NCBI GenBank assembly: GCA_038747705.1
Contig: JBCDJP010000002.1
Coordinates: 73,395-137,394 of the forward strand
Reading direction: 5' to 3'
Length of the DNA stretch: 64,000 bases
Source: Verrucomicrobiota bacterium
GTDB lineage: Bacteria; Verrucomicrobiota; Verrucomicrobiia; Verrucomicrobiales; Akkermansiaceae
The notes under the pieces are model-generated. The model was given only the letters and a program-made list of their open reading frames with translations. It was not told where the DNA came from and did no database searches. Of the stretch, positions 16,345 through 64,000 are shown piece after piece (position 1 is the stretch's first letter; the number at the start of each line of letters is the position of its first letter). A program made the position numbers and the translations under genes.

Positions 16345-16610
16345 CCGGCGCGAAGCTAGGGGAGGCGCCTGCGGTGGGCAACGTCAGGTTTTCCCCGACC
16401 TCACGCGATCGCGGGATGGAATCGATGGAGAAGCTGTGGGAATCTGTCACTGCTGTAGAATGCCGAAAGGCGGAAGCTGGAAAGCAGTGACCGTTGGAAG
16501 GCCAGACTGAGAATCGTGGATTCCATCCACTCCTGTTTCGGGAAGGGTGGCTCGTAATACCCTCCGGGGGGAAGTTACGAGCCACCCTTTTTCGCTTCTT
16601 GGAAGCCGCT

Positions 16611-17615
16611 TCAGCTCAGTGGCGGTGGCCCGCCGGCGGGTGCCAGCTTGGGCTCGGGGCCCTTGCCTCCATCGAGCATCTTCGCCAGTGAGGCGACGGT
16701 GCCACCGATGTCCGAGAGGTTCTGGGGAATGATCAGCGTGTTGCCCTCCTTGGCGAGCTTGCCGAACTCCTTCACGTACTGCTCGGCGACCCGCAGGTTG
16801 ACCGCGGATTGACCGCCCGGTGCCTCGATCGACTCGGCGATCCGGCGGATCCCGTCAGCGGTGGCGTTGGCCAGCAATTCGATTTCGCGGGCCTTGCCCT
16901 CAGCTTCGTTGACCTGAGCCAGTTTGCGAGCCTCGGAGACCTTGATGGCTTCCTGCTTCTCACCCTCGGCGACGTTGATCTGGGCCTCGCGCTGACCTTC
17001 CGAAAGTGCGATCTGGGCACGGCGTTCGCGTTCCGCACGCATCTGTTTCTCGAGTGCGTCCTGGACCGACTGAGGCGGCTTGATGTTGGCGATTTCGTAG
17101 CGGGTGATCTTCAGTCCCCATGGCTCCGACGCCTTGTCGAGCGCCTGAATGACCGAGGCATTGATCATGTCGCGCTCCTCGAAGGTGCGGTCGAGCTCGA
17201 TCTTGCCGATCTCGGAGCGGAGCGTGGTCTGGGCGAGCTGCGAGGCAGCGAAGTAGTAGTTCTCGATCCCGTAGGATGCCGCTTTGGCGTCGAGGACCTG
17301 CATGTAGAGCACCCCGTCGATCTCGATGGCGATGTTGTCCTTGGTGATGCAGACCTGCGAGGGCACATCGACGGCCACCTCCTTGAGCGAGTGCTTGTAG
17401 GCCACCCGGTCAAAGAAGGGGACGAGGATGTGGAAGCCGGCTTCGAGGGTCTTGCGATACTTGCCCAGTCGTTCGACGACGTAGGCCTGCCGCTGCGGAA
17501 CGACCCGGGCGGTCTTCAGGAGGACGATGATGACGACCACGACGGCAACCACCGCGATGATGATCGGTGCGGGATTGCGGTCGCTCGCCGCAAGGAGTGA
17601 TGGGATGATGGTCAT
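16611..17615 (-). CDS. SPFH/band 7 (stomatin-like, QmcA-type) membrane protein
   Basis: VVPQRQAYVVERLGKY, ITKDN, AQTTLRSEIG, QMRAERERRA. Confidence 0.93.
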   Translation of the reverse strand: MTIIPSLLAASDRNPAPIIIAVVAVVVVIIVLLKTARVVPQRQAYVVERLGKYRKTLEAGFHILVPFFDRVAYKHSLKEVAVDVPSQVCITKDNIAIEIDGVLYMQVLDAKAASYGIENYYFAASQLAQTTLRSEIGKIELDRTFEERDMINASVIQALDKASEPWGLKITRYEIANIKPPQSVQDALEKQMRAERERRAQIALSEGQREAQINVAEGEKQEAIKVSEARKLAQVNEAEGKAREIELLANATADGIRRIAESIEAPGGQSAVNLRVAEQYVKEFGKLAKEGNTLIIPQNLSDIGGTVASLAKMLDGGKGPEPKLAPAGGPPPLS

Positions 17616-17630
17616 GATGAGTTGGATGGA

Positions 17631-18107
17631 TTAGCGGTTGCGGACGTGGAGGGTGAGTCCCTCGCGGTGATCGATGATGACGGTGGTGCCGGCGACGATG
17701 GTCGCATCGGCGCGGGCCTTCCATTCGGCGCCCTTGATCTCGACCCGGCCGTCGAGGCCGGGGCCGGGGATGTCCCTGACGACGCTGGCCTCACGGCCGG
17801 TGTAGTCGTCGTCCATGTCGCCGTTTTCATCGTTGCTCTTGCCGACGAACCAGCCTTTGACGAGATGGCGCAGGGAAAAGAGCAGGACGATCGAACTGGC
17901 TCCGAACATCAGTGTCTGGGAGGTTAGTGACGTGGTCATTCCGAGCCAGGTGCTCAGAGAGGTGAGCAGGGCGCCGGCACCGAAGAAGCCGATCACGACA
18001 CCTGGAACCATGAACTCTGCGAGAATCAGCAGGGCTCCGGCAATGAACCATAGAGTTACGGGGTCGTTCATGATGGTGGGTTCGGGATTCGTCATCATTT
18101 CTACCAC
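17631..18107 (-). CDS. NfeD family protein (YbbJ-like), partner of the SPFH protein
   Basis: W..AG.LL..AE N-terminus, TM segments, GRVEIKGAEWKA OB-fold; start may be 18072. Confidence 0.88.
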   Translation of the reverse strand: MVEMMTNPEPTIMNDPVTLWFIAGALLILAEFMVPGVVIGFFGAGALLTSLSTWLGMTTSLTSQTLMFGASSIVLLFSLRHLVKGWFVGKSNDENGDMDDDYTGREASVVRDIPGPGLDGRVEIKGAEWKARADATIVAGTTVIIDHREGLTLHVRNR

Positions 18108-18224
18108 AAGCTCAGACGGCGGCTTTTATAAACGCCTGACCGGATTGGAGTGCCGGCGGGATCCCCGAACTTGCTTGAATGCAGGCTTGTCGGGTGTGCG
18201 TGGAACGTGCGATAGCTTTCCCCT

Positions 18225-19088: not shown

Positions 19089-19118
19089 CGGTCGGGCAAG
19101 AGTCGGCTTCCAGCGCGG

Positions 19119-20291: not shown

Positions 20292-20479
20292 CGCTTGGGT
20301 TCGACGAGCTCGGCGCCCTTGATCAGGCGGCAGAATTCCTTCTTGGTGACCTCTTTCAGCGTGCCGTCCCCGCTTTCAGGATCGCTCATCGCCTTGTATT
20401 CGATGGCGAGACGGGCCCATTGAACGATGCGGTAATACTCATCGCCCTTTTTCCACAGCTGGCCTTGCTCGAGCTTCAT
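20288..20479 (-). CDS. Small hypothetical protein
   Basis: 63-aa ORF whose stop overlaps the start of the downstream hydrolase (4-bp overlap). Confidence 0.7.
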   Translation of the reverse strand: MKLEQGQLWKKGDEYYRIVQWARLAIEYKAMSDPESGDGTLKEVTKKEFCRLIKGAELVEPKR

Positions 20480-22799: not shown

Positions 22800-22811
22800 A
22801 AAGGGTCGGGC

Positions 22812-23042
22812 ACCAGGGCGATCAAGTTGAGGATTTCGATTGGGAGGAAACCGCAGATTACGCCGATTGACGCAGATGAATTCATCCTGATCCTCTTGAC
22901 TCGGGGTGCTTGTTGGCCCGGTCGTCGATGGTGATGAGTCAAAACTGGTTGTTCGCACGACAATCTGAGTTCATCTGCGTAACCAGCGGCCTCATCTTTC
23001 AACGTTTTGGGAAGAAGGACTCCTCAATTTGATCGCCCTGGT
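22812..23042. repeat. 231-bp nested inverted-repeat element (MITE/REPIN-like)
   Basis: 22-bp terminal IR with 1 mismatch (22812-33 / 23021-42), inner arms 22851-80 / 22970-89, innermost TTGACTC/GAGTCAA. Confidence 0.75.
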
Positions 23043-30314: not shown

Positions 30315-31883
30315 GTGGAGACGGTCGACATCGTGCTGCCGCTCGAGGCTTCCGAGGACGTGCGCGAGTGGGAGAAGGCGGCGGCGAAGAAGCTGGGCGT
30401 GGCGACGGTGCAGGAGGTTCGCTTGCTCAAGCATTCGATCGATGCGCGTCAGCGGCGGATCAAGGTTCAGCTGCGGCTGGAGGTCGGGGTGGATGCCCCC
30501 TTGCCGGATGCGGTGGAGCCGACCTGGGAGGCGCCGCCCTTACCCAAGGATGCCAGAACCGTGGTGATCGTCGGCTGCGGGCCGGCGGGCATGTTTGCGG
30601 CCCTGAGTTGTTTGGAGAGAGGCATCAGGCCGGTGGTTTTGGAACGCGGCAAGGATGCCAGTGCGCGTCGCTTTGATCTCGCGCCGATCCTGAGGGAGGG
30701 CCGGGTGATCGAGGACTCGAACTACTGCTTCGGTGAAGGCGGGGCAGGGACCTTTTCTGATGGCAAACTTTACACCCGCGCCACCAAACGGGGGCCGGTG
30801 AGGAAGGTCTATGAGATCTTCGTCGCTCATGGTGCTCCGCCACGAATCCTGATCGATGCCCATCCGCACATCGGATCAAACCTGCTGCCGAAGGTGGTGA
30901 TGGCGATGCGTGAATCGATCCGGAAGGCGGGCGGTGAAGTGTGCTTTGGGGCCAAGGTGGTGGGGTTCTTGAATGGCCATGGCGGATGCAATCCGCCGTC
31001 ACGGGTGAACGGCGTGGTGACTTCGGACGGCCGTGAGTTTGTTGGCGATGCGGTGATCCTCGCCACTGGGCACAGTGCGCGCGACATCTATCGGCTGTTG
31101 CATGCGGAAGGTATCCGTCTTGAGCAGAAGGCCTTTGCAGTGGGCGTGCGGATCGAGCATCCGCAGCCCTTCATCGATGGGCGGCAGTATCACCTGAACG
31201 AAGGCGTCGAGCGTCCGCGTCAGCTGCCGGCGGCGAGGTATGGAGTGGCGACCAAGATCGACGGCCGAGGCGTGCATTCCTTCTGCATGTGTCCGGGCGG
31301 CTGGATCGTGCCGGCGGCGACCGAGAACGACGAGGTGGTGGTCAATGGCATGAGCCTTTCGCGTCGTGACTCACCCTTTGCCAATTCGGGACTGGTGGTG
31401 ACGGTTGAACCGGAGGACGTGCGGGAGTTTGAGAAGGAGCATGGGGTGCTTTCCGGAGTGGCGTTCCAGAAGGGTTTGGAATGCCGGGCGAAGCAGGCGG
31501 GCGGGGGTGGACAGATCGCACCTGGACAACGGGTGGCCGACTTCCTGCGTGGCAAGGTCTCGGCCGACTTACCGGAGATGAGTTATTTTCCCGGAGGGAA
31601 ATCTTCGCCCCTGCACGAGATCCTGCCCGAGGATCTGGTGCGGCGAATGCGGGACGGGTTGCGCCTGTTCGATCGCAAGATCCGGGGCTACGCCGGGGCG
31701 GAAGCGCTGTTGCTGGGCTTTGAGACGCGAACCAGTTCACCGCTGAGGATTCCGCGCGATGAGGCGATGCAGCATCCGGAGGTAAAGGGGCTGTTTCCTT
31801 GTGGTGAGGGCGCGGGATACGCCGGCGGGATTGTCAGCGCGGCGCTGGATGGGATGAAGGTGGTGGAGGCAGTGGTGGGGTGA
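30315..31883 (+). CDS. NAD(P)/FAD-dependent oxidoreductase (HI0933-related family)
   Basis: VGCGPAG, GEGGAGTFSDGKL, HPHIGS, ATGHSARD, FCMCPGG, ETRTSSP, GEGAGYAGGI. Confidence 0.9.
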   Translation: METVDIVLPLEASEDVREWEKAAAKKLGVATVQEVRLLKHSIDARQRRIKVQLRLEVGVDAPLPDAVEPTWEAPPLPKDARTVVIVGCGPAGMFAALSCLERGIRPVVLERGKDASARRFDLAPILREGRVIEDSNYCFGEGGAGTFSDGKLYTRATKRGPVRKVYEIFVAHGAPPRILIDAHPHIGSNLLPKVVMAMRESIRKAGGEVCFGAKVVGFLNGHGGCNPPSRVNGVVTSDGREFVGDAVILATGHSARDIYRLLHAEGIRLEQKAFAVGVRIEHPQPFIDGRQYHLNEGVERPRQLPAARYGVATKIDGRGVHSFCMCPGGWIVPAATENDEVVVNGMSLSRRDSPFANSGLVVTVEPEDVREFEKEHGVLSGVAFQKGLECRAKQAGGGGQIAPGQRVADFLRGKVSADLPEMSYFPGGKSSPLHEILPEDLVRRMRDGLRLFDRKIRGYAGAEALLLGFETRTSSPLRIPRDEAMQHPEVKGLFPCGEGAGYAGGIVSAALDGMKVVEAVVG

Positions 31884-31884
31884 G

Positions 31885-32056
31885 AGTGAGGATTTAGTGG
31901 CGAGTAATCAGAGACCAGCTTGCCGTACCGGCCTGTCCGCCGTAGCCTCGGCGAAGGAGGAAGCTTCGGCATAGGCGGGTGACCAGTGATGGGAGGGTTG
32001 GACGCATGGGCGACTGAAAGTCGCCTCGCCCCCTCATGGCGCTCGGAGAGCGCTAC
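31885..32056. repeat. Composite intergenic repeat island: 7-mers, CCTGTCCGCCGTAGCC element, two GNA-triloop hairpins
   Basis: AGTGGCG-AGTAATC-AGAGACC; GGCGACT-GAA-AGTCGCC at 32009-25; GCGCTC-GGA-GAGCGC at 32039-53, reading GTAG-first on the minus strand. Confidence 0.7.
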
Positions 32057-32058
32057 TC

Positions 32059-32856
32059 CTAAAGACTTGCCCGCCGGATCTTGCCGGGGGGCTGGGCAAG
32101 GAAGCGCTTGGCGAGGGCTTCAAATTCCTCGGAAAGGTCGGTCAGGTGAATCTCGAGCTTGCCGGGGTCGCTTGATTCATTGAGCAAGTCCAGCCGGGTG
32201 AGCTCGGCCTTCAGGTGCTCGGCGCAGGTGGTGGCGGAGTCGATCAGTCTGACGTCATCGGGAAGGAAGTCCTTCAATTTCGGAATCAGCAGCGGGTAGT
32301 GCGTGCAGGCGAGGAGCAGGGCGTCGATGCCGGTCTCGACCATCGGGTCGAGGTAGCTGTGCAGGGCGGCATCGGTGGCGGGGTGACCGAGCCAGTTCTC
32401 CTCAACCATCGGTGCGAGCAGTGGCGCCGACTTGGCGTGGATGATCAGGCCGGTCTTCCGCTGGGCGAGGGCGTGTTGATAGGCGTGCGATCGGATCGTG
32501 CCGCGGGTGGCGATGATGCCGATCCGGTCGGTGTCGGGTTCGGCGAGGGCGGCTTCGACGCCGGGTTCGATCACGCCGAGGATCGGCAGGTCGAAACGTT
32601 CGCGCAACGTGGGCAAGGCGTGGGCGGTGGCGGTGTTGCAGGCGATGACGACCGCCTTGACGCCGTGGGACTGCAGGAACTCGACGTCCTGACGGGCGAA
32701 CTCCCGGATGGTTTCCGGGCTTTTCGAGCCGTAGGGAACGCGGGCCGTGTCGCCGAGGTAGACGATGTCCTCGTGAGGCAGGATCTCCTGGGCGGCGCGG
32801 ACGACGGTCAGCCCGCCGACGCCGGAATCGAAGAAGCCCAGAGGTGCGCTGCGCAT
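32059..32856 (-). CDS. murI: Glutamate racemase
   Basis: FDSGVGGLTV, GDTARVPYG, IACNTAT, LACTHYP. Confidence 0.97.
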   Translation of the reverse strand: MRSAPLGFFDSGVGGLTVVRAAQEILPHEDIVYLGDTARVPYGSKSPETIREFARQDVEFLQSHGVKAVVIACNTATAHALPTLRERFDLPILGVIEPGVEAALAEPDTDRIGIIATRGTIRSHAYQHALAQRKTGLIIHAKSAPLLAPMVEENWLGHPATDAALHSYLDPMVETGIDALLLACTHYPLLIPKLKDFLPDDVRLIDSATTCAEHLKAELTRLDLLNESSDPGKLEIHLTDLSEEFEALAKRFLAQPPGKIRRASL

Positions 32857-32868
32857 GGAACGGAGAAT

Positions 32869-32896
32869 CCAGAGACCAGCGACCAGAGACCAGAGA
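32869..32896. repeat. Heptamer tandem repeat (CCAGAGA)x4
   Basis: CCAGAGA CCAGCGA CCAGAGA CCAGAGA. Confidence 0.8.
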
Positions 32897-32907
32897 AAAG
32901 ACTCGCC

Positions 32908-33801
32908 TCAGCGGCGGGTCCGGCGGAGCAGGAGGGCGAGACCAAGGCCCATCAGCGTGGCAGCCGACGGTTCGGGCACGGCGCGGATGCCGGTCTCGTC
33001 TTCGATCCACCCGGTGAAGGCCTGCAGGTTGCCGGCGCCGCTCAGGGCACCGTAGCGGCCATTGGTGCCACCGGGTTGGCTGCTGTGGGTGCTGCCGTAA
33101 CTGTTGATGCCGATCAGGTAGTCCCGGCCACCGATGCTGGTGAACACGCCGCCACCACTGTCGCCCGGTGCGAGGGAGCCCTCGAGGCGGGTTGCAGTAG
33201 GCGAGGAAGCAGGGGTGTTGGTCGAGCCGTCGGGATGGTCAAAGTCGGCGACGAAGGAAGAGCTCGGCAGGGTCGGGTAATCCGGGTGACCGCCGAGCAC
33301 GTCGATGACATTGGTTAAGGCGCGGAACTGGGAGATGCCGACGAAGCCGGTACGTCCACTGCCGACGAATCCATGTCCGACCCACGAAGCTTCGACGCCG
33401 ATCATGCTCATCGAGTCCGAATACTGCCAGATCTCCGCTGCCGCGACATTGCCCACGGCGGTCGAGAGAAACAGCAATGCGAAGTCGGACTCGAAGCTGC
33501 CGCTGGTGTAGCCGGGGTGGATCACCGAGCTGCTGATCGAGTAGGTCGAGCCACCGATGGCGAAGGTGCCGGCGGTCAGGGCATCGGCCACGTGGGCTGC
33601 AGTCAGGACCCAGCGGTCGCCGATCAGGACTCCGGATCCCGTGACCGCGCCCTCGGTGATCTTGCCGACCGAGAAAAAACGGGCGGCCTCGTCACGGTAG
33701 AGCTGGCTTGAAATCGACGGATCGTCGGCCGGGTCGATGATCGTCACGCCGGCGGCGGTGCCGGCGAGCGCTATCAGGAATGGGAAAAGGATGGGCTTCA
33801 T
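32908..33801 (-). CDS. PEP-CTERM-anchored trypsin-like (S1) serine protease
   Basis: Signal peptide, LTAAHV, DFALL, GDSGG; C-terminus VPEPSAATLMGLGLALLLRRTRR. Confidence 0.93.
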   Translation of the reverse strand: MKPILFPFLIALAGTAAGVTIIDPADDPSISSQLYRDEAARFFSVGKITEGAVTGSGVLIGDRWVLTAAHVADALTAGTFAIGGSTYSISSSVIHPGYTSGSFESDFALLFLSTAVGNVAAAEIWQYSDSMSMIGVEASWVGHGFVGSGRTGFVGISQFRALTNVIDVLGGHPDYPTLPSSSFVADFDHPDGSTNTPASSPTATRLEGSLAPGDSGGGVFTSIGGRDYLIGINSYGSTHSSQPGGTNGRYGALSGAGNLQAFTGWIEDETGIRAVPEPSAATLMGLGLALLLRRTRR

Positions 33802-33890
33802 GGCCTACTGCTAAGCTAAAAGCTAAACAGGCGGGTGCGCCACCGGATTTCGGCTTTTCCCCGTGGATTCACGAATCTAAACCGGTTCCG

Positions 33891-38505: not shown

Positions 38506-41208
38506 TCAGGTCCGCCAGATCACCCGCAGCGAGTCGAGGCGGAGACGTGGTGACTTCAGCGATTCCAGGGTTTCCTCCAGCGTCGATTCCAAGCCTGTGA
38601 TCTCGGACTCGTTAACTTGAGGATTACGCTTGGCGAGTTCCTTGAGGCGTTCGATCTCGGCAGTCAATCCGGCCTTGGCATTCTTCTTCGCCGCCTTGCG
38701 GCCGGGTTCAGCCTGCTTGTCGGCGAGTTCTTCGGCGAGCTTGAGCAGTTTGGGAAGGATGTCGTTGCGGAAGGCCGGCTGATTGACGAGTCGACGTGAA
38801 TCGCCGGGTTGAAGCGGCGCGGGTTTCAGAAGTTCGCTGAGGTCCTTGCCGGTGTGGTCGAGCATCACGCGGATCGAGGTCGGCGGCAGGAAGCGTTCGA
38901 TGTGCAGGCGCTGCGGAGCGAGGGCTTCGAGAACGAAGCAGCATTCGATCAACACAGCCTTGCCCTTGCCGGTCTCCCAACGGGCGAAGGACGCGTTGCC
39001 ATACTCGGAGCTGAGCAGGTGGTCGATCGCGCCGGTCAGCATCGGATGGTCGGCGGTGAGAAAGGTGAGGTCCTCACGCGCGAGAGCGTTGTCGCGATCG
39101 AAGGTGATCGAGAGTCCCTCCTCGGGCAGGTCGGCAAAGGCTTCGCTCAGGCGTTGGCTGCGCTTGAGGATGTAGGATCGCAGGGCCAGATCGGAGACCT
39201 TCAGGCCGAGCTTGTCGAATAGCCGGATGGTGAAGCGCTCGAAGGCGGGATCCTCGTCGGCCTGCTCGATCGTTTCGAGTAGCTTGGCCGCCTTCTCCGG
39301 TGCTGGTGCGCCGAGCTCGAGCAGGCGGTCGTGGCCGGTGGCAAGCTCCTCGATGATTTCATCCTTGAGCTGGCGTGAGCGTTTGAGGAAGGCATCGAAG
39401 GCGGCCTGGTCACCGGGTTCGAGTTCGTCGAGGCCGGGAAGCAGTTCGTGGGCGAGTTTGGTGGCACCCTTGAGCGGCTGGGTGAAGGCGTCGATGCCTT
39501 CATGCAGCCAACGTGCCTGAAGTTCGGACGGGCTATCGACGCCGTAGGGGACGTGGATGTGGATGGTTCCGGTCTGGCCGATGCGGTCGAGGCGGCCGAT
39601 GCGCTGCTCGAGCAGTTCGGGATCGCGCGGCAGGCCGAAGAGCACTAGGTGGCGCGCGAACTGGAAGTTGCGGCCTTCGCTGCCGATCTCGGAACAGATC
39701 AGGATGCGTGCCCCTTCGGGTTCGGCGAAGTAGGCGGCGTTGCGATCGCGCTCGAGCATCGAAAGGTCCTCGTGAAACAGGCCGACCTCGATATTGAGTT
39801 TTTCGAGCAGCTTTTCCTGGGTGCCGATCGCCGCCTCGGGTGAGCTGGTGATGAGCAGGATCTTTTCGTCCTCCGGCAGCTCGCGGACGAGCTTTGCCAG
39901 CCATTGGTAGGGCGAGGTACCGGGTTCGAGCGGATGAAGGTGCGGTTCGCGCTCGGGGAAGCCGCTGAGTTGCTCGCGGGTGTTGCGGAACAACACGCGA
40001 CCGGTGCCGAAGGTGTCGATCAGCTCGGCGATCAGATGCTTGCGGGCAGCTTCCTGGCCGAGCTTGACCTTGCCGAGCAGGGCGGAGGCGCGCTCGGACT
40101 TGTCGGCGAAGCTCTTGATGTCCTCCGGCAGATCGCCATCGAGCAGGGCGTCGATCGCACTGGCCAGGGGTGCGTAGGATTCGGCTTCCTTGAGAAAGGC
40201 GTCGAGATCGACGTAGCGGTCGGGATCGAGCAGGCGCAGGCGGGCGAAGTGGCCGGCCGGACCGAGTTGCTGCGGAGTGGCGGTGAGCAGCAGTAGGCTG
40301 GAGACCGACTTGGCCAGCGACTCGACCATGGAATACTCGCCCGAGCTCTCCTCGGGCGACCACTCGAGGTGGTGGGCTTCATCGACGATCAACAGGTCGA
40401 ACCCGGCCTCGCGAGCCTGCGCGGCGCGGTCGGGATGATCGGTGAGGAAGGAGGTCGCGCACAGGATCAGCTGGGAGTCGAGAAACGGGTTGCCTTCCGG
40501 ATCGCCGGCGTCGATCGAAACACAGCGCGCTTCGTCGAAGAGGGCGAAGAGCAGGTTGAAACGCCGCAGGAGCTCGACGAACCACTGGTGGACGAGCGGT
40601 TCGGGTACCAGAATCAGAATCCGGTCGGCGCGGCCGGTGAGGTGAAGGCGGTGAAGGATCAGGCAGGCTTCGATGGTCTTGCCCAGACCAACCTCGTCGG
40701 CGAGCAGCACGCGCGGGTGGAGCCGGTTGGCGGTTTCCGCGACAATGGCGAGCTGGTGCGGGATGAGGTCGATGCGGGCGCCGGTGAAGCCGCGGGCGGG
40801 TGACTGACGCAGCGTGGCGTTCCACTCGAGCGCGCGCAGGCGCAGGTCAAAGTCGCGGGGGTCATCGCACATGCCAGCCAGCAGCCGGTCGCTCGGCGAC
40901 GTGAAACTCAGGGTGTCGAGCAGGAAGGCCTCGGGTACTTCGATGCCCTCACCGTGGTAGGTGAGGATGCCGTCCTCCTCGTCCACATCGGTAACGTCAA
41001 ACTCCTGCTTGTCCGCGTTGGCGATCCGGTCGCCGACCTTGAAACGCACGCGCACCAGCGGGGCGGACTCAAGTGCGTAAAGTCGGGTTTGCTCGGCAGC
41101 GGGGAAGTGCAGCTCGACACGGTTGTCCTCGGTCGAGAGGACAATACCGAGGCCGAGGGTGGGTTCGGAAGTGGAGATCCAGCGTTGGCCGGGGGAGGGT
41201 GACTGCAT
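38506..41208 (-). CDS. rapA: RNA polymerase-associated SWI2/SNF2 ATPase RapA/HepA
   Basis: GQRWIS..E..LGLG, LLADEVGLGKTIEA, DEAHH, ATPQQLG, SEGRNFQFA, EQRIGRLDRIGQ, LRLDSLRVI. Confidence 0.93.
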   Translation of the reverse strand: MQSPSPGQRWISTSEPTLGLGIVLSTEDNRVELHFPAAEQTRLYALESAPLVRVRFKVGDRIANADKQEFDVTDVDEEDGILTYHGEGIEVPEAFLLDTLSFTSPSDRLLAGMCDDPRDFDLRLRALEWNATLRQSPARGFTGARIDLIPHQLAIVAETANRLHPRVLLADEVGLGKTIEACLILHRLHLTGRADRILILVPEPLVHQWFVELLRRFNLLFALFDEARCVSIDAGDPEGNPFLDSQLILCATSFLTDHPDRAAQAREAGFDLLIVDEAHHLEWSPEESSGEYSMVESLAKSVSSLLLLTATPQQLGPAGHFARLRLLDPDRYVDLDAFLKEAESYAPLASAIDALLDGDLPEDIKSFADKSERASALLGKVKLGQEAARKHLIAELIDTFGTGRVLFRNTREQLSGFPEREPHLHPLEPGTSPYQWLAKLVRELPEDEKILLITSSPEAAIGTQEKLLEKLNIEVGLFHEDLSMLERDRNAAYFAEPEGARILICSEIGSEGRNFQFARHLVLFGLPRDPELLEQRIGRLDRIGQTGTIHIHVPYGVDSPSELQARWLHEGIDAFTQPLKGATKLAHELLPGLDELEPGDQAAFDAFLKRSRQLKDEIIEELATGHDRLLELGAPAPEKAAKLLETIEQADEDPAFERFTIRLFDKLGLKVSDLALRSYILKRSQRLSEAFADLPEEGLSITFDRDNALAREDLTFLTADHPMLTGAIDHLLSSEYGNASFARWETGKGKAVLIECCFVLEALAPQRLHIERFLPPTSIRVMLDHTGKDLSELLKPAPLQPGDSRRLVNQPAFRNDILPKLLKLAEELADKQAEPGRKAAKKNAKAGLTAEIERLKELAKRNPQVNESEITGLESTLEETLESLKSPRLRLDSLRVIWRT

Positions 41209-41304
41209 GCGCGGGGGCTGTTAGCCCATGGCCGGGGATTGGCCAATGATCAAATCGGCGAATGTCGTGCTGGATCGGGCTTTCGGGTGGGGGTGTTGGG
41301 ATTT

Positions 41305-41399
41305 TACGAAAGGACGCGAAGCTCGAGGGGGAGGGATGTTGAGGTCACTTCGGCAGCCTCCAAGCCATCCCCATTGATTCATCTTCGCGGCTTTCTGTA
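41305..41399. repeat. About 95-bp imperfect intergenic hairpin
   Basis: TACGAAAGGACGCGAAG pairs with CTTCGCGGCTTTCTGTA; inner GGGATG/CATCCC. Confidence 0.55.
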
Positions 41400-41415
41400 G
41401 AACCTCAAAAAAGCC

Positions 41416-54050: not shown

Positions 54051-54692
54051 ATGGGCGTGCAGGCGAAGCAATCGGTTTGGCCGCTGGTGGGGCTGATCGT
54101 GCTGGCCCTGATCATGTGGCTGAAGGATCACCGGGGTGATCTTACCGCAGTGGCGACCGGTGATCCGGCTGCGGCGTCGGACGGGCGTTACGAGATGATC
54201 GAGGGCTGCCGCTGGGTGGACAACCGGCGTAACGATGGCGACAGCTTTCGCGTCGAACTGGGGGACGGAAGGTCGGTCGAGTTGCGGTTGTATTTTGTCG
54301 ATGCCCCGGAGTCCGCCTTCAAGACCTACGGCAAGGATCGTAATAATCACGAGCGGATCCGGGATCAGGGAAGGGATCTGGACGTGTCCCCCGAGCGCGC
54401 GGTGGAGGTCGGGGTCGAGGCCAAGAAGTTCGTCCGTGCCCAATTGGGTGACCGGCCGTTCACGATCTTCACCGAGTGGGACGATCCATTCAAAGACCGT
54501 CGTTACCATGCTTTCGTCGAATTGCCCGCCGGTGGTTGGCTGCATGAGGAACTGGTCCTGCAGGGACTGGTGCGCATTCACACCAAGGGTGAGGATGTTC
54601 CCGGCGGACTGCGGCGCGATGCGCAGGAGCAGCGGCTGCGGGAGCTTGAAAGTGAGGCTCGCCGAGCCGGACGCGGAGTGTGGGGGAGGTGA
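54051..54692 (+). CDS. Thermonuclease (SNase-like) family protein
   Basis: [32 protein letters not shown]. Confidence 0.85.
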
Positions 54693-54704
54693 GGGGGCTC
54701 ACAA

Positions 54705-54736
54705 TTGACGCGGCCCGGAACCCGTGGTATATACCA
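54705..54736 (+). promoter_or_regulatory. Sigma-70-type promoter with an overlapping palindromic operator
   Basis: TTGACG-N17-TATATA; perfect palindrome TGGTATATACCA at 54725-36. Confidence 0.8.
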
Positions 54737-54739
54737 GAT

Positions 54740-54970
54740 ATGACAACCACGGTGTTCCTCAATGGTCGCTCGCAGGCGGTCCGGATTCCGAAGGCCTTTC
54801 GCTTTGAGGGGAAAGAAGTGTCGATTCGTCGCCTGGGTGATGGCGTGTTGCTTGAGCCGCTGAAGGTGGAGACCTGGCCTAAAGGTTATTTTGATGCGAT
54901 TCGGATCGATGATTCGGACTTCGAAAGGCCGGACCAGGGGGAGCTCCCGGAAGTGGCTGGGTTCGAGTGA
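54740..54970 (+). CDS. vapB: VapB antitoxin (AbrB/SpoVT fold)
   Basis: [19 protein letters not shown]. Confidence 0.92.
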
Positions 54971-55371
54971 TGAAGTATCTGCTGGATACCAATGTCTGCA
55001 TCCGGGTGATGAAGGGCGATCCCCGGGTCACCGCGAGGATGCGAGCGCTTCGACCCGACGACTGTGGGGTGTCGATGGTCTCGGTCTATGAGTTGTTTTT
55101 CGGCGTCGAGCGATGTCGAAATCCTGAGCGTGAGGCCGACAAACTGCTGGAGTTCCTGAAGCCGCTGCATCTTTGGCCTTTCGACTGGGATGCCGCTCTG
55201 CGAACCGCGGCCGTGCGGAGGCAGCTGGAGGCGTCGGGTAATCGCATTGGCCCCTATGACTTGCAGCTCGCCGGTCAAGCCCTCGCCCTCGATGTCGTCA
55301 TGGTGACGAACAACACGAGGGAGTTTCGCAGGGTCGAGGGTTTGAAGGTGGAGGATTGGGAGAGCGAGTGA
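54970..55371 (+). CDS. vapC: VapC PIN-domain toxin
   Basis: YLLDTN, YEL..G, IGPYDLQLA, VTNNTREF.RV.GL.VEDW. Confidence 0.95.
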   Translation: MKYLLDTNVCIRVMKGDPRVTARMRALRPDDCGVSMVSVYELFFGVERCRNPEREADKLLEFLKPLHLWPFDWDAALRTAAVRRQLEASGNRIGPYDLQLAGQALALDVVMVTNNTREFRRVEGLKVEDWESE

Positions 55372-56031: not shown

Positions 56032-58104
56032 CTACGCCGACACCAACGGGTCTTCCGGGGGTTCATGAATGGATGAGAAGAGCGCTTTGTGCGCACCAGT
56101 GAGTTCCGGATCCTCGGCGATGACCTGGTCGGCGAGGGCGCGGGCCTCGCGAAGCAGGGCAGTGTCGGCGAGAAAGTCCGGGAACCGGATGTCACCAAGG
56201 CCGCTTTGCATGGTGCCTAGAACGTCGCCGGGTCCGCGCAGGCGCAGGTCCTCCTCGGCGATCTCGAAGCCGTCGGCGGTCCGCTCCATGACGCCGAGTT
56301 TCTCCATCGCTTCGGCGCTTTTGCCGTCGGTCAGCAGGATGCAGTAGCTCTTATGCTCGCCGCGGCCGATCCGGCCACGCAGCTGGTGCAACTGGGCGAG
56401 GCCGAAGCGTTCGGCGTGATGGATGATCATCAGGTTGGCATTGGGGACATCGACGCCGACCTCGATCACGGTGGTGGCGACCAGGGCGTCGATCCCACCG
56501 TCACGGAAGCGACCCATGATCGATTCCTTCTCCTCGGGGTCGACCTTGCCGTGGATCAGCCCAACCTCGTACTTCGAGAGGCGTTTGACCCACTTCTCGT
56601 GCGCGGCGGTGGCGGACTCGATCTTGAGCTTCTCGCTATCCTCGACCAGCGGATAGACAAGATAGGCCTGACGGCCCTGATCGAGCTGGTCCTTGACGAA
56701 CTTGTTGAGGTCGGACTGCTTTGGCTTCACCCGCAGGGCGGTGACCATCTTGCCGCGGCCGGCGGGACGTTCATCGAGAATGGAAACGTCGAGGTCACCG
56801 TAGATGGTCATCGTCAGGGTCCGCGGGATCGGCGTGGCGGTCATGACGAGGACATCGGGCCGGGTGGTTCTTTCCTGGTCGGGGCAGGAATGCCCCTTCT
56901 CCATTAGGCGGCCGCGTTGGATGACGCCGAACTTGTGTTGTTCGTCGATCACGATGAGTCCGAGGTCGCGGAAGGCGACGGAGTCGTAGAGCAGCGCGTG
57001 GGTGCCGATGATGACCTGGGCTTCGCCTTCGAGCGCGATGTGGGATTCCTCCTGTCGATTGGCAGTGCGCAGGGCGACGCGGATGCCGAGCGGCTCGAGC
57101 CAGCGGCGAAAGGTGAGGTAGTGCTGCTCAGCGAGGATCTGGGTCGGAGCCATCAGGGCCGCCTGCACCCCGGAATCGACCGCCAGCAGCATGCTGGCCA
57201 TGGCGACGAAGGTCTTGCCGGAGCCGACGTCGCCCTGGAGAAGCCGGTTCATCGGGCGGGGCTGGCGGAGGTCGGCGATGACCTCGCGGATCGAGCGCTT
57301 CTGTGCCCCGGTGAGGTCGAAGGGGAGGTTTTCGTAGAAGGCCTTGAGGAGGCTGGTCTTCTTCCCGAGGACGCGGCCGTCGGACTCGTGGATGCGGGCA
57401 CGTCGCCAGACGACATTCAGCTGGAGGATGAAGAATTCCTCGAGGGCGAATCGGCGTCGCGCGGCTTCCGCCTGCTCGAGGGATTCGGGAAAGTGGACTT
57501 CGCGGATGGCCTCGTGACGCGGATAGGTGGGGTCGACGTCGTAGGGCCCGGCAAGCGTCGCGGGTTCGACATGCTCCAAGGTGTGATACTGGACTTCCCG
57601 TAGTCGTCGCTGGGCGATGCCGGAGACGTTGCGATAGACGGGAACGATGCGTTCGAGGTGGACCGATGGGCCGGAGTGGTCCTTGATGACCTCGAACTCC
57701 GGGTGATCGATGACGATGCGTCCTTGCGATTCCTTCGGTTTCCCGTGGAGAATGACCTCTTGGCCGGCGGCGAGGACCTTTGACAAGAAGGGCATGTTGA
57801 ACCAGCGGCAGGTCAGGGTGGCAGGGCCCATGCCTCTGCTGCCGGAAGCGTCGGCGACGACGGCCTCGTAGAAGCGGGCGCGTCCGCCGAAGCGTTTCCG
57901 GGTGTCGATGACCGTAGCCCGGATGCAGACGGCGGCCCCACCGGCTTCGGCGGGAAAGGCATCGAAGCGCCGGCGATCTTCGTAGCGCCGGGGCAGGTGA
58001 TCGAGCAGCTGCCGGAGCGTGTGGATGCCAACGGCGCCGAGCGCGAGGACTTCCTTCGGAGCGAGGAAGTCGCAGCTGGCGAGCTCGGAGTCGGCGGCGA
58101 TCAA
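56032..58104 (-). CDS. recG: ATP-dependent DNA helicase RecG
   Basis: RLLQGDVGSGKT, APTQILAEQH, DEQHKFGV, MTATPIPRTL, GLAQLHQLRGRIGRG, DLRLRGPG. Confidence 0.97.
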   Translation of the reverse strand: MIAADSELASCDFLAPKEVLALGAVGIHTLRQLLDHLPRRYEDRRRFDAFPAEAGGAAVCIRATVIDTRKRFGGRARFYEAVVADASGSRGMGPATLTCRWFNMPFLSKVLAAGQEVILHGKPKESQGRIVIDHPEFEVIKDHSGPSVHLERIVPVYRNVSGIAQRRLREVQYHTLEHVEPATLAGPYDVDPTYPRHEAIREVHFPESLEQAEAARRRFALEEFFILQLNVVWRRARIHESDGRVLGKKTSLLKAFYENLPFDLTGAQKRSIREVIADLRQPRPMNRLLQGDVGSGKTFVAMASMLLAVDSGVQAALMAPTQILAEQHYLTFRRWLEPLGIRVALRTANRQEESHIALEGEAQVIIGTHALLYDSVAFRDLGLIVIDEQHKFGVIQRGRLMEKGHSCPDQERTTRPDVLVMTATPIPRTLTMTIYGDLDVSILDERPAGRGKMVTALRVKPKQSDLNKFVKDQLDQGRQAYLVYPLVEDSEKLKIESATAAHEKWVKRLSKYEVGLIHGKVDPEEKESIMGRFRDGGIDALVATTVIEVGVDVPNANLMIIHHAERFGLAQLHQLRGRIGRGEHKSYCILLTDGKSAEAMEKLGVMERTADGFEIAEEDLRLRGPGDVLGTMQSGLGDIRFPDFLADTALLREARALADQVIAEDPELTGAHKALFSSIHEPPEDPLVSA

Positions 58105-58122
58105 GGAGCGTCGGGTGTGGGA

Positions 58123-59588: not shown

Positions 59589-61388
<1,800 letters not shown>

Positions 61389-61397
61389 ATCGTCGGT

Positions 61398-62480
61398 TCA
61401 GCCCTTGAGTCGGGCGGCGGCGGATTCGAGGTCCTTGACGGCGTCCTTGCGCCATTTGACTGATTGCTCGGCGGCTTCGCGGTTGTAGCCGGAAAAACCC
61501 TTCGGGTTGAACTCCTTGGCGTCGCGGTTCAGCTCGTGGAGAGCGCTGCGGTAGAACTTACCAAAGCGGCTGATCAGTCCGTTGTCGGAGGTGCGCATGC
61601 GCTTGCTTGCCAGTTCGGTGTTCATGTCGAACAGGGCGGCAACGATCGGGACCTCCTCGTTTTCCTCAAAGATGCTGAGGATGGTCGGGCCACCGTCGCC
61701 GACCCGGGTGTCGAGGCGGAGTCCGGCTTTGGTGGGATCGAGGACCGAGATGGCGTAAAGGATGCGGGTGTTGCGGTTGAAATCCTCAAGTCGGGCGTCC
61801 TCCTTGAGGAAGCGGCCGATCGGCATCTGCTGCCACTTGATTTTGCGGTCGAGCCGGGTGGCGAAGCGCCGGACTTCGTTGAAGTCGGTATCCTTCGCCC
61901 AGATATCATCGCGGCCGGCGGTGGCGTGGGTCACGACGCCGAGCAGTTTGCCGCTTTCACCGGAGAAGACCGGGCCGCCGCTGTTGCCCTGGATGACGCC
62001 GTTGGTGACTTCGATGGAGTCGGGGCCGAGGGACTTGGCTTCGCCGTTGAGGACGGTGAGCACGCCGGCGCCACCGCTGTTGCCGATGGCGAGCAGCTTG
62101 GTTTTGACCTTGGCGCTGCCCGGTTCCGCGCGCTCGATGCCGGACTCGAAATCTTCCTTGAGTTCGATGCGGGCGAGGTCCGACTTTTCCGCGACCTCGA
62201 AGGTCCCGAACTTGGTGAACTTCCGGCCGTCGGCATTCTTGACCGTCAGGCGCTTGTTGCCGCAGAGCACGTGGGCGGCGGTGTAAAGGCGGGTGACCTC
62301 GCCCTCGTTGATGATGAAGCCGGTGCCGTTGCCGATATCGCCTTCGATGATGGCGATGGAGCTGAACTGTTCCTCGACGATCTTCTTCGCTTCATCGGAC
62401 TTCTTGGAATCAGCGTGTGCGAGAGGGGAAAGGCAGGCGGTGAGGAGGATGCCCGCGGAGAGTCGGAACGCCTTTTGCAT
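61398..62480 (-). CDS. Secreted trypsin-like (S1) serine protease
   Basis: Signal peptide, GTGF, YTAAHV, SDLAR, GNSGGP; start set at MQKAFRL. Confidence 0.85.
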   Translation of the reverse strand: MQKAFRLSAGILLTACLSPLAHADSKKSDEAKKIVEEQFSSIAIIEGDIGNGTGFIINEGEVTRLYTAAHVLCGNKRLTVKNADGRKFTKFGTFEVAEKSDLARIELKEDFESGIERAEPGSAKVKTKLLAIGNSGGAGVLTVLNGEAKSLGPDSIEVTNGVIQGNSGGPVFSGESGKLLGVVTHATAGRDDIWAKDTDFNEVRRFATRLDRKIKWQQMPIGRFLKEDARLEDFNRNTRILYAISVLDPTKAGLRLDTRVGDGGPTILSIFEENEEVPIVAALFDMNTELASKRMRTSDNGLISRFGKFYRSALHELNRDAKEFNPKGFSGYNREAAEQSVKWRKDAVKDLESAAARLKG

Positions 62481-62541
62481 GTCTAGCGGATAGCAGGTCG
62501 CCCGCCAGGTGGGAAAACAATTTCTGTTAAGTCGATGACAT

Positions 62542-64000
62542 CTAAGCCTTCGCCTGTGCAAGTTCTTGGGAATCTGCGGAGAGTGGCCGGTGGGTCAGCT
62601 CCGCGGCGAGGAAGGGTGCCGTGGCGGATCGTTTGGATTTCGAAACTTTCTCAGGGGTGCCCTGGGCGACGATGCGTCCGCCCTTCTCGCCGGCTTCGGG
62701 GCCGAGGTCGAGGATCCAGTCGGCCTCGGCGGCGACCGCCATGTGGTGTTCGATGACGACCACGGTGTGGCCTTCGTCGACGAGTCGGTGGAGGACGTCA
62801 ATCAGTTTGCGGACGTCCTCGAGGTGCAGTCCGACGGTGGGTTCTTCGATCAGATAGAGGTTGGAGGATTGGATGCCGGACAGCTGGGCTTTCCGGGAGC
62901 GGCCGCGGATGAGTTGGGACACGAGTTTGATCCGTTGGGCTTCGCCCCCGGAGAGGGTTGGAGAGGGTTGACCAAGCTGGAGGTAGCCGAGGCCGGTATC
63001 GGCGAGCAGTCTCAGCGGGGTGGCGATGCGGGGCTGCGATTCGAAGAATTCGGCGGCCTGCTCGATGGTCAGGTTGAGGATCTCCCCGATATTCTTTTCG
63101 CGGAAGCGTACCTCGAGGGTGGCGGGGTTATAGCGGAGTTCGTTGCAGGTCTCGCAGGGAATCCAGGTGGTGGGCAGGAAGTCCATCTCGAGCTTCACCC
63201 GACCGTTGCCCTCGCAATCGGGGCAGCGGCCCTTGCCGGTGTTGAAGGAGAAGCGGGAAGCTTCGTAGCCCCGCACGCGCGACTCGGGGAGTTGAGCGAA
63301 GAGCTTGCGGATGTCGTCGAAGATCTTGACGTAGGTGGCCGGGCACGAGCGCGAAGTCTTGCCGATCGGGGACTGGTCGACTTCGTAGCAATGCTTGAGG
63401 GGTTTGAAGCCAGTGGCCTTCTTGAATGGCCGGTCGGTGGTCTTCTTGGAAGCGGCAGCCACGGCCACGCATTGATGCATGAGGGTGGACTTTCCGGAGC
63501 CGGAGATTCCGGTGAGCACGGTCAGGCGACCGAGCGGGATGGCGACGTCGAGGTCCTTGAGATTGTTCGCGAGGCAACCGGTGAGCTTCAGCTGCGGGTG
63601 GCTCTTCGGGATCGAGCGGCGCTTGCCGCGGGTCGGGTGGGCGATGGGATGGGTGAGCGCCTTGTAGGTGGGGGATGCGGCCTGCTGCGCAGGAGTGTCG
63701 AGTGAGTAGTGAGGAGTGAGCAGTGATGATTTGGCGGCTGCGTCGCGTTTGTTGGACCTTCTGCTCGATGTTTTACTACTGCTAACTGCTAACTGCTCAC
63801 TGCCCACTCGGGGCGGAGCCCCGCAATAGACGACTTCGCCGCCGAGTCGGCCGGCGCCGGGGCCGAGGTCGATCAGGTGGTCGGCGCGGGCGATCGTGTC
63901 CTCGTCGTGTTCGACCACGACCAGTGAGTTGCCGCGGTCGCGCAAGGCAAAGAGGGTGTTGAGCAGGGCGGTGTTGTCGCGCGGATGGAGGCCGATGGTG
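62542..64000 (-). CDS. uvrA: Excinuclease ABC subunit A, C-terminal part (5'-truncated by the window)
   Basis: TIGLHPRD, VVVEHD, GPGAG..GG, GISGSGKS, FSFN..GRC..C, LSGGEAQRIKL, EEPTVGLH; frame stays open to the window edge. Confidence 0.97.
   Translation of the reverse strand, partial: TIGLHPRDNTALLNTLFALRDRGNSLVVVEHDEDTIARADHLIDLGPGAGRLGGEVVYCGAPPRVGSEQLAVSSSKTSSRRSNKRDAAAKSSLLTPHYSLDTPAQQAASPTYKALTHPIAHPTRGKRRSIPKSHPQLKLTGCLANNLKDLDVAIPLGRLTVLTGISGSGKSTLMHQCVAVAAASKKTTDRPFKKATGFKPLKHCYEVDQSPIGKTSRSCPATYVKIFDDIRKLFAQLPESRVRGYEASRFSFNTGKGRCPDCEGNGRVKLEMDFLPTTWIPCETCNELRYNPATLEVRFREKNIGEILNLTIEQAAEFFESQPRIATPLRLLADTGLGYLQLGQPSPTLSGGEAQRIKLVSQLIRGRSRKAQLSGIQSSNLYLIEEPTVGLHLEDVRKLIDVLHRLVDEGHTVVVIEHHMAVAAEADWILDLGPEAGEKGGRIVAQGTPEKVSKSKRSATAPFLAAELTHRPLSADSQELAQAKA
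63700..63823. repeat. Heptamer-repeat hairpin plus GGA-triloop hairpin inside the uvrA reading frame
   Basis: (AGTGAGN)x4 ... (CT[AC]ACTG)-type x5 inverted arms; CGGGGC-GGA-GCCCCG at 63809-23. Confidence 0.8.

Follow-up and report, generated by a model that had tools for sequence, protein, structure and literature searches.

The DNA analyzed here is a 64,000-nucleotide (nt) stretch of a Verrucomicrobiota bacterium (contig JBCDJP010000002.1), which we call the window, and our subject is a set of small palindromic repeats and 7-nt (heptamer) tandem arrays that lie in its intergenic gaps and in frame within some of its genes. The window has a G+C content of about 61%, and Pfam scans of 50 of its open reading frames (ORFs) returned ordinary housekeeping and envelope genes. 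Those that bear on the repeats include the 3' part of a uvrA gene that runs off the window (62542-64000, minus strand), a gene for a FAD-dependent oxidoreductase (30315-31883), the convergent gene for an Asp/Glu racemase (glutamate-racemase-like; 32059-32856, minus strand), and recG (56032-58104, minus strand). The closest relatives of the window proteins belong to Haloferula and Luteolibacter (Verrucomicrobiales): RecG is 84% identical to the protein of a Haloferula sp. and 99% identical to that of an NCBI "Verrucomicrobiota" metagenome-assembled genome (MAG), and the UvrA fragment is 75% identical to that of H. luteola. The public runs that contain the window sequence are marine metagenomes. 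In a scan of GTDB representative genomes, the best match was 75%, with at least 12 Verrucomicrobiales loci among the matches listed. The syntenic locus of Haloferula sp. (L085; GCA_039978435.1) served as the closest sequenced relative, and copy numbers and other copies in the source metagenome were judged from Logan contigs of matching depth.

The UvrA coding sequence contains a palindrome with heptameric arms. The first arm (63693-63729) reads GAGTGAG TAGTGAG GAGTGAG CAGTGAT and lies in frame in an inter-ABC linker; the center (63730-63774) encodes ..NKRDAAAKSS.. and is homologous to CCACCAAACGCGGCAAAGCCGCCAAATC, with blastn matches to L085 at two places and to L086; and the inverted second arm (63775-63810; TTACTAC TGCTAAC TGCTAAC TGCTCAC TGCCCAC) is about 75% complementary to the first. 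The minus-strand frame of UvrA is open across 63693-63823, and the element (63693-63810) adds about 35 to 40 residues to the protein. Compared with a solved UvrA (PDB 2r6f), the extra residues fall in the linker between the ABC halves, which comprises about 17 residues in the solved structure and about 70 in the window. The stretch from GPGAG to NNLK measures 204 nt in Prosthecobacter-like sequences, 213 nt in another Verrucomicrobium, 258 to 318 nt in the Haloferula/Luteolibacter group, and 309 nt in the window. The extra linker DNA is an orthologous palindrome in the window, L002, L003, L005, L006, and L085; its ends read AGTGCCGAGTG...CACTCGGCACT, i.e., (AGTGC)CGAGTG ... CACTCG(GCACT), and its arms are runs of 7-nt units that flank a short center coding for a basic peptide.

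The units of which the arms are made differ from species to species (GCAGTGA and GTAGTGA in the window, AAGTAAA and AAGTAGA in L005, GAAGTGA in L003, and GATCAGTG in L002 and L006). Arms were matched within species, with a mean arm-pair alignment score of 9.2 within species versus 5.8 between species, and the observed diagonal was reached in 4 of 120 permutations. The peptides that the arms encode are unrelated between species (SEQLAVSSSK, SKKYKVKSGG, and SEKCQVKSGR), and the conserved feature is therefore the symmetry of the nucleic acid and not the protein. In L002 (10339-10388) and L006 (10750-10799), the right heptamer arm of the UvrA element holds a further, nested insertion of about 50 nt, whose own hairpin retains pairing through two-sided changes (GACGGC/GCCGTC versus GAGGCG/CGCCTC).

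Arm complementarity that persists while the encoded peptide changes completely, and a nested stem kept by two-sided changes, would both suit another explanation, namely, that the palindromes are selected functional structures (terminators, mRNA stabilizers, or protein-binding sites, for example in uvrA regulation) and not selfish DNA. Against this stands the finding that elements at the same site are present or absent, or of different sequence, in related genomes; the intergenic elements described below bear on it further.

In relatives, a single ORF of about 1,900 to 2,000 codons, comprising four ABC modules, encodes UvrA. This gene, which is of one kind with Oter_2709 of Opitutus terrae, is referred to here as the double UvrA gene. 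Arrays were scored as self-similarity at a fixed lag of at least 17 of 21 positions, and TRF was run alongside. In the window, the period-7 scan returned three arrays at two loci (32864-32902, and 63693-63729 with 63775-63810), while lags 4 to 6 and 8 to 11 returned none and dinucleotide shuffles about 0.05 per shuffle. These three are also heptameric simple sequence repeats (SSRs), with at least three tandem 7-nt units, above chance. The sequence-only reading of this DNA had listed 7-mer arrays at 31885, 32869, 33807, and 63701; those at 32869 and 63701 are real and specific to period 7, whereas those at 31885 and 33807 are too weak to count as heptameric SSRs (self-similarity below 15 of 21).

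Across 14 Verrucomicrobiales loci centered on the double UvrA gene, 23 period-7 arrays fell within 81.6 kb of that gene and 2 within 134.8 kb outside it (odds ratio of about 19, p = 2e-8), and other lags gave nothing comparable. One of the two arrays outside the double gene sits in a second UvrA-like gene. The arrays occupy equivalent linker positions in paralogous UvrA modules, and the same linker position carries a different motif in each species (CCATCTN, CAAATCT, AAAATCC, CACTTCT, and others). Among the UvrA loci fetched, period-7 arrays were almost confined to Verrucomicrobiales: the loci from Proteobacteria, Actinobacteria, and other phyla contained none, bar those of one Gemmatimonadales and one Planctomycetales MAG, the latter with one array at the threshold of at least 17/21 and two at a lower threshold. 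The Gemmatimonadales MAG carries five heptamer arrays in and around uvrA (L039; 133-253, 1016-1099, and 3584-3616), including (GGGGAAC)n as well as (GGGAGCA)n / (CCCCGCT)n, which form an inverted pair. Verrucomicrobia may therefore not be the only group in which UvrA is linked to heptamer arrays.

Because 7 is not a multiple of three, the gain or loss of a unit within a gene would shift the reading frame, and arrays in a repair gene could act as contingency loci that switch the UvrA paralogue and thereby form a mutator switch; some homologues are indeed called as split genes. However, all eight double UvrA genes from short-read assemblies (8/8) are intact as single frames, the longest of 2,006 codons, although they contain as many as five arrays, which argues against phase variation and for purifying selection on the frame. 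The two broken genes (L002 near 10000 and L003 near 5378-5531) come from one long-read sample, and since their breaks lie in conserved motifs and off the arrays, they are probably assembly indels. No length variants at the UvrA array were found among strains of the source metagenome. With the genes intact, we rejected phase variation of UvrA and consider contingency loci a most improbable explanation.

Copies of these sequences recur within and between genomes. In Haloferula sp., the center CCACCAAACGCGGCAAAGCCGCCAAATC and the right arm are present at two paralogous linkers of one UvrA gene. In the source metagenome, a depth-matched 1.6-kb contig carries a segment identical to 63723-63749 and, at a second place, 63708-63751, and variant copies of the 63775-63810 arm lie on other contigs. 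In L009, two paralogous positions carry one and the same 34-nt hairpin segment, CGTGGGCG-TCT-CGCCCACG, each with arrays after it. A census of perfect hairpins in the Verrucomicrobiales loci revealed families at non-orthologous sites: GGAGCG-GGA-CGCTCC has one copy in L004 and three in L086, GGGGCG-AGA-CGCCCC has two copies in L004 and one in L009, and the 19-mer CATGACCGGGACGGTCATG (CATGACCG-GGA-CGGTCATG) lies in an oxidoreductase loop and in UvrA of Haloferula sp. as well as in UvrA of L005. A pattern scan of metagenomes with the element center yielded a single true relative, which again lies in UvrA (L086), along with two matches that are likely due to chance; owing to the excessive specificity of the pattern, the scan says little about dispersal outside UvrA. 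On an unrelated metagenome contig (L088, 1803-1990), we observed a MITE-like element (MITE, miniature inverted-repeat transposable element) with inverted ends of about 57 nt that include CAAACGCGGCAGAGCCGCCAAATC; as this is the pattern used for the scan, the match is probably due to chance.

The oxidoreductase gene carries an 18-nt in-frame insertion at a protein loop where about 30 relatives have zero or only one or two extra residues. The window and a 99% identical twin have six extra residues there, which match the 17-nt hairpin GGCGGAT-GCA-ATCCGCC (30981-30997) exactly. At the same loop, Haloferula sp. has eight extra residues that correspond exactly to a different, dispersed hairpin, the 19-mer described above. 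Two different perfect hairpins at one loop strongly support the in-frame insertion of hairpins. The window hairpin with its flanks (CATGGCGGATGCAATCCGCCGyCACG) is also found, with 25 of 26 positions identical, in L006, 7 nt past the stop codon of a UvrA-like gene. Strain variation in this hairpin consists of a loop base change from G to C at 30988, with the stem retained.

Between the convergent oxidoreductase and racemase genes lies a 175-nt composite (31884-32058). In Haloferula sp., these genes overlap by 4 nt and the segment 31876-32076 is missing, indicating that the composite is lineage specific. It opens directly after the oxidoreductase stop codon with a degenerate heptamer tract of weak periodicity (31884-31931; GAGTGAG GATTTAG TGGCGAG TAATCAG AGACCAG ...). 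Next comes the small dispersed repeat CCTGTCCGCCGTAGCCTCGGCGAAGGAGGAAGC (31932-31964), which forms a hairpin (31937-31978) with a partial inverted copy, then a dispersed repeat (32008-32043) with the hairpin GGCGACT-GAA-AGTCGCC (32009-32025), and then another (32029-32060) with the hairpin GCGCTC-GGA-GAGCGC followed by TAC, which on the minus strand reads as GTAG plus palindrome. The contig depth of 31932-31965 was 134 versus 17 in run X1 and 59 versus about 0 in run X3. This segment, with the equivalent of about seven to eight copies, also occurs on several other contigs, among them two depth-matched ones of 6.4 and 5.8 kb that carry it with one mismatch. The segment 32008-32043 is also on a 10-kb depth-matched contig (one mismatch), 32007-32061 on a 1.6-kb contig, and 32029-32060 on another source-metagenome contig (one mismatch). 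Together, the depth steps and extra contigs indicate that at least three small dispersed repeats make up the composite. It is exactly within these repeats that Logan contigs end, and as a practical effect, the repeats break short-read assemblies.

Hairpin elements are recurrently nested in, or joined to, heptamer arrays. An 86% identical copy of CCTGTCCGCCGTAGCCTCGGCGAAGGAGGAAGC lies inside a (CCACCAT)n array of UvrA in L005, and the orthologous array of L009 is uninterrupted. A second, 33-nt subtype, CCTGCCCGCCATAGCCCGGARGGCGWCGGCGGG, sits exactly between two heptamer-arm units in L005 and L086, with no target duplication. All four copies of the 30- to 34-nt element lie in heptamer tracts. 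The sequence-only reading had pointed out a joining of triloop hairpins and 7-mer arms at 31885-32056 and 63700-63823. The array at 31885 is weak, and the hairpin CGGGGC-GGA-GCCCCG at 63809-63823 codes for Gly-Ala-Pro-Pro (GGG GCT CCG CCC) at the edge of the UvrA insert. The corresponding coding sequence, GGGGCTCCGCCC, is also present in L004 and L005; judged from this conservation, the 63809 hairpin is probably not an inserted element, and its adjacency to the heptamer arm is probably coincidental.

The earlier proposal that palindromic elements occupy both intergenic gaps and in-frame protein loops or linkers is thus borne out, and several of them are dispersed repeats. Insertion polymorphism among relatives, the lack of which would have spoken against that proposal, is seen in the UvrA linker, the oxidoreductase loop, and the 175-nt composite. 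Among near-identical strains of the source runs, we found no empty sites; all carry the UvrA and oxidoreductase inserts. The position of the composite between convergent genes is one where REP-like (repetitive extragenic palindromic) hairpins are thought to act on transcripts (PMC3733652), as selected functional structures would. However, the composite is missing in the closest relative, where the two genes overlap, and no T-run follows the hairpins. With the polymorphism noted above, we regard selection for such structures as an unlikely explanation of the palindromes.

A further alternative is that nothing moves and all of these features are the products of local mutation; slippage would give rise to the arrays, template-switch inverted duplication to the hairpins, and tandem duplication to the inserts. 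RecG contains a 27-nt in-frame insertion (56866-56892, minus strand) with the hairpin GGGGCA-TTCC-TGCCCC at 56881-56896, which is absent in 20 of 22 aligned relatives. At this site, L084 has 66 nt that can be read as three degenerate tandem units of about 30 nt (GGGCATTCCyGCCCCGAy plus 12 nt), and a local tandem duplication is probably the simpler reading of the RecG insertion. Of the in-frame elements proposed earlier for uvrA, recG, and the oxidoreductase gene, inserts were found in all three, but the one in recG is thus probably of local origin. The RecG hairpin at 57182 sits in a conserved helicase segment without an insertion; it and the hairpin at 34235 (halogenase) were rejected as insertions and treated as chance occurrences.

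The heptamer array (AGACCAG)n at 32864-32902, detected by the lag-7 scan and by TRF just upstream of the start of the racemase-like gene, is likewise of local character. An orthologous tract in Haloferula sp., immediately upstream of the racemase start, is 7-periodic but degenerate and shares the 3' end CAGAGAAAAG. The array is an old, ancestral simple-sequence tract that was expanded locally and not inserted; it is merely more homogeneous in the window. Also in keeping with local mutation, the first arm of the oxidoreductase hairpin (GGCGGA) corresponds to ancestral Gly-Gly codons, so that the second arm could be an inverted copy of it, and no repeat has two copies in the 64 kb. Local mutation does not account, however, for identical 19-nt and 26-nt sequences at unrelated loci of different genera, for 33- to 36-nt segments on several other depth-matched contigs, or for a 30- to 34-nt element that lies in an intergenic gap of the window and within UvrA arrays elsewhere. 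As a complete explanation it is already contradicted, and we think it doubtful that it is the main one.

All the stems listed by the sequence-only reading are present in the sequence. The window contains 23 perfect triloop hairpins with stems of at least 6 bp, against 21.9 expected under a dinucleotide null, so that hairpins overall match a shuffled null. The subset with GNA/TNC loops exceeds it, with 9 observed versus 2.6 expected (P of about 0.005) at stems of at least 6 bp and 4 versus 0.67 at stems of at least 7 bp. For coding GNA/TNC hairpins, a null that preserves proteins and codon usage gave a marginal result (5 versus 2.0, P = 0.055); the excess is mostly in the 7,980 nt between genes, where four of the six hairpins have GNA/TNC loops. 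Loci from three Haloferula genomes, 75 kb in all, did not reproduce the enrichment (4 versus 3.2), and the GNA triloop was therefore rejected as a general signature. Taken alone, the total triloop count, a GNA excess that is not reproduced in relatives, and several listed items that are ordinary or single-copy would fit chance palindromes and ordinary terminators in a GC-rich genome, with no system at all. This explanation is already contradicted by the period-7 specificity, the UvrA enrichment, the dispersed copies, and the insertion polymorphism, and we give it hardly any credence.

Several features that had been grouped with the repeats stand apart from them or belong to them only in part. 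The first of two long nested hairpins (22812-23042) is a real 231-nt nested inverted repeat beside a window-specific esterase gene, with 22-nt arms that are 95% complementary and a DNA-fold z-score of -3.8. Dispersed repeats make up its inner parts (22845-22877 and 22903-22989), which recur on other depth-matched contigs, so it is related to the mobile fraction; no full-length second copy was seen. It was not accepted as a MITE: it has 22-bp terminal inverted repeats, but there is no duplication at its ends and only the inner parts recur. The second, placed earlier at 41305, is an imperfect 111-nt hairpin (41296-41406) 3' of a window-specific gene for a 469-residue protein; its fold z-score is marginal (-1.8), it is single-copy among source-metagenome contigs, and a related strain carries a different 143 nt at that site. 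It was rejected as an integron attC site because its sequence, on reading, has neither a RYYYAAC nor a GTTRRRY core site.

The hairpins at 16516 and 16561 belong to a structured region (16446-16595, plus strand) between two minus-strand genes. The region has a fold z-score of -4.7, with several hairpins, and ends in a 17-bp stem and T-run, which is the 16561 hairpin. Present as a single copy, with about 94% conservation in a related strain, it looks like a candidate small RNA or a terminator outside the repeat system. An Rfam scan of the window returned no match at the gathering score and none for 16446-16595; the only match of an E-value search, to Ysr141, a Yersinia small RNA, at 57049-57256 in recG, scored 33 bits against a gathering score of 196 and was dismissed as spurious. 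The view that triloop hairpins, 7-mer arrays, and long nested hairpins form one system was not supported: the element at 41305 is single-copy, 16516 and 16561 belong to a terminator locus, 63809 is a coding motif, the RecG insert is probably a local duplication, and the array at 32869 is ancestral. About half of the coordinates proposed for the system lie outside it.

Pfam scans of the 50 ORFs found no transposase family, in agreement with the earlier statement that no mobilizing gene lies in the window. In the syntenic region of Haloferula sp., a gene for a 158-residue Y1_Tnp protein (L085, 12326-12802) lies directly after recG, with hairpin repeats in tandem and inverted arrangement on either side, GCTCC-TAC-GGAGC and GCCCC-TAA-CGGGGC. 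The NCBIfam score of this protein for IS200/IS605 is 72 bits against a cut-off of 55. The counterpart of this site in the window (54656-55371) holds a PIN-domain (VapC-like) gene with a small upstream ORF. The lineage has HUH-type single-strand transposases with associated hairpin repeats, and nothing ties the Haloferula sp. Y1 gene to the window elements. An IS200-family transposase with flanking hairpins beside recG in the closest relative makes the HUH/RAYT-type mobilizer proposed earlier plausible (RAYT, REP-associated tyrosine transposase), but we infer both the enzyme and its mechanism.

Taken together, we find it reasonably probable that the window and its relatives carry REP- or SDR-like (small dispersed repeat) mini-elements mobilized in trans, together with heptamer arrays grown by slippage, both tolerated in protein linkers. 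The lineage, that of a Haloferula-like member of the Verrucomicrobiales, carries small palindromic repeats, as hairpins of 15 to 20 nt and elements of 30 to 35 nt, sometimes in inverted doublets, as well as 7-nt tandem arrays, often as inverted arms around a short center. The small repeats would be non-autonomous mobile DNA of the REP/REPIN/SDR type, copied in trans. The agent would most likely be an enzyme of the IS200/RAYT kind that acts on single-stranded DNA (HUH, Y1) and whose gene sits in another part of the genome; such a transposase would also account for the lack of target duplications. Heptamer arrays, other repeats, and the DNA beside them would be the preferred landing sites, so that composites accumulate. 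The arrays would grow and shrink locally through replication slippage, and either intrastrand template switching or selection for the stem may keep the two arms of a palindrome alike. Within genes, inserts would survive only if their length is a multiple of three, if the reading strand contains no stop codon, and if the protein tolerates them, as in flexible linkers and surface loops. The UvrA paralogue of about 1,900 residues, with its four ABC modules, would offer many tolerant linkers, and its paralogous modules would permit inserts to be copied between equivalent positions, making UvrA the main reservoir.

Several observations weigh against the mobilization of mini-elements as set out here. 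The GNA-loop excess is modest and is not seen in the Haloferula loci; most window hairpins differ in their stems, and self-BLAST of each element found a second copy of none within the 64-kb window; and some items, such as the RecG insertion, look like purely local mutations. There is no transposase in the window, the Y1 protein of Haloferula sp. falls under the RAYT cut-off (34 bits versus 80 in NCBIfam), and the window lacks the hairpin repeats that flank its gene. We found no target sequence conserved among the four sites of nested insertion. Copy numbers were derived from the depth of Logan contigs and not from an assembled genome, and the tests run do not explain the 7-base unit length or the strong preference for UvrA.

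In a bolder proposal, the heptamer arrays would be dedicated landing pads of an undescribed single-strand mobilization system (15- to 35-nt elements, no target duplication) to which the UvrA paralogue, more than a tolerant host, is functionally connected, for instance as a safe harbor kept by selection or through palindromes that couple uvrA expression or UvrA activity to DNA secondary-structure stress. We consider this improbable. If it were true, the landing-pad logic would link the repeats of Verrucomicrobia and Gemmatimonadota with the SDR and tandem heptamer (STRR) repeats of cyanobacteria.

The remainder of the window contains several features of separate interest. UvrB (12861-15134; 757 residues) has an insertion of about 50 residues, RADNQRYIPVKRRKDGRGFDHIDLKKLRIKPSGNSESVEDFDPTDAKRPL, at 14175-14325 compared with all solved UvrB structures, as well as an N-terminal extension of about 37 residues; no repeat or palindrome was found in the 50-residue insertion. 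The gene at 38506-41208 (minus strand) was identified by the Pfam scan as that of RapA and not of UvrA. Five segments have no counterpart in the otherwise syntenic Haloferula sp. contig (22778-24394, 32901-33905, 35188-38507, 41216-42976, and 44623-46722), and these window-specific segments encode an esterase, a trypsin-like PEP-CTERM protein (32908-33801, minus strand), GH20 and YceI proteins, the 469-residue protein, and a GH16 protein. Upstream of the PEP-CTERM gene lies the weak heptamer-like tract at 33807-33830 (2.1 copies in TRF), which like that gene is missing in Haloferula sp. The elements at 22812 and 41305 and the 33807 tract all border genes absent from Haloferula sp.; no inference can be drawn from this placement because intergenic DNA is generally unalignable at that divergence. 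At 3-1855, a 267-nt unit is repeated 6.9 times with 74% identity within a large surface protein that has Big_7, PKD, and Ig-like domains. In the first 9,000 nt, the GC skew flips sign near 8 kb. The cumulative skew reaches its minimum there, and beyond about 8 kb the skew is positive throughout the rest of the window. A replication origin, a terminus, or a strand-bias switch could account for this; no dnaA gene was seen. A tRNA search of the window found none.

Among known systems, REPs are the first point of comparison. REPs with GTAG and CGTC tags have been described, whose intragenic copies cluster in repair genes (Di Nocera et al. 2013, PMC3733652). O. terrae, likewise one of the Verrucomicrobia, has the most intragenic REPs, including some in both of its uvrA genes, and those in its 1,995-residue uvrA product encode GTGVSPV-type peptides (PMC3733652). 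The window elements share with GTAG/CGTC REPs their short GC-rich palindromes, single or in inverted doublets, their location mostly between convergent or co-directional genes and sometimes in frame in genes, and the preference for repair genes, and relatives of the window carry GVSP-type hairpins in the same gene as O. terrae, in agreement with the peptides reported for that species. The hairpins at 30981, 32009, and 32039 and the palindrome at 31937-31978 correspond to REPs in being 20- to 40-bp imperfect palindromes able to form stem-loops. As to the tag, only 32039-32056 reads as GTAG plus palindrome (minus strand); the 31932 element has an internal CCGTAGCC, and the other hairpins are untagged. 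The window elements differ from REPs in their stems of 6 to 8 bp, their loops of 3 to 4 nt, their length down to 15 to 19 nt, and their association with heptamer arrays. In REPINs (REP doublets that form hairpins), the repeats are associated with RAYTs (Bertels and Rainey 2011, PMC3116915); a RAYT flanked by the same REPs was found neither in the window nor at the syntenic Y1 gene of Haloferula sp., and that gene, the only Y1 gene seen, scores as IS200/IS605.

Rickettsia palindromic elements (RPEs) are described as about 100 to 150 nt long and in frame in conserved proteins (PMC3733652, PMC1779305, PMC10969869). By description, they resemble the 63693-63810 element, an in-frame palindrome that adds about 35 to 40 residues at a tolerated position, whereas RPEs are not built of heptamer arrays and their host is an intracellular alphaproteobacterium. 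Heptameric SSRs are over-represented in bacteria, and this excess is unexplained (Rehm et al. 2015, PMC4692102, citing Mrazek et al. 2007). They resemble the arrays analyzed here in their 7-nt units, typically about four, near gene starts and stops in large GC-rich genomes. In contrast to those in that study (PMC4692102), the motifs of the window and its relatives (NAGTGAG, AGACCAG, and CCATCNN) are not G-quadruplex formers, and many lie in coding sequence, where heptamers were depleted in that study, and are paired as palindromes.

In a limited literature search, from which absence is not established, we found no description of palindromes with heptamer-array arms, of a roughly 19-fold concentration of arrays in a double UvrA gene, of arm co-evolution within coding sequence, or of SDR-like nesting outside cyanobacteria, and nothing on Verrucomicrobia. 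The insertion of palindromes in frame is a rare way for selfish DNA to contribute new peptide segments to conserved proteins, and prior examples are mainly the RPEs of Rickettsia, scattered intragenic REPs, and cyanobacterial SDRs. With filled and empty sites in cultured relatives (Haloferula and Luteolibacter), the mobilizing enzyme and the excess of 7-nt repeats become experimentally approachable.

The SDRs of cyanobacteria, reportedly described by Elhai and colleagues in 2008, are said to be mobile palindromic repeats of 20 to 30 nt that are nested in tandem heptamer repeats (STRR). They have no encoded transposase, some lie inside conserved genes, and the heptamer arrays are found near gene starts and ends. 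The window elements are likened to SDRs by description, in that all four copies of the 30- to 34-nt element are very small dispersed palindromes nested in tandem heptamers. They differ in their phylum, in their GC-rich sequences, in an element length of 30 to 34 nt, and in the concentration of inverted-arm arrays in one gene family. To the cyanobacterial precedent, our results add a second phylum with mini-repeats nested in heptamer arrays, an extreme and quantifiable preference (about 19-fold) for one repair gene, and the co-evolution of paired arms whose encoded peptide can change freely.

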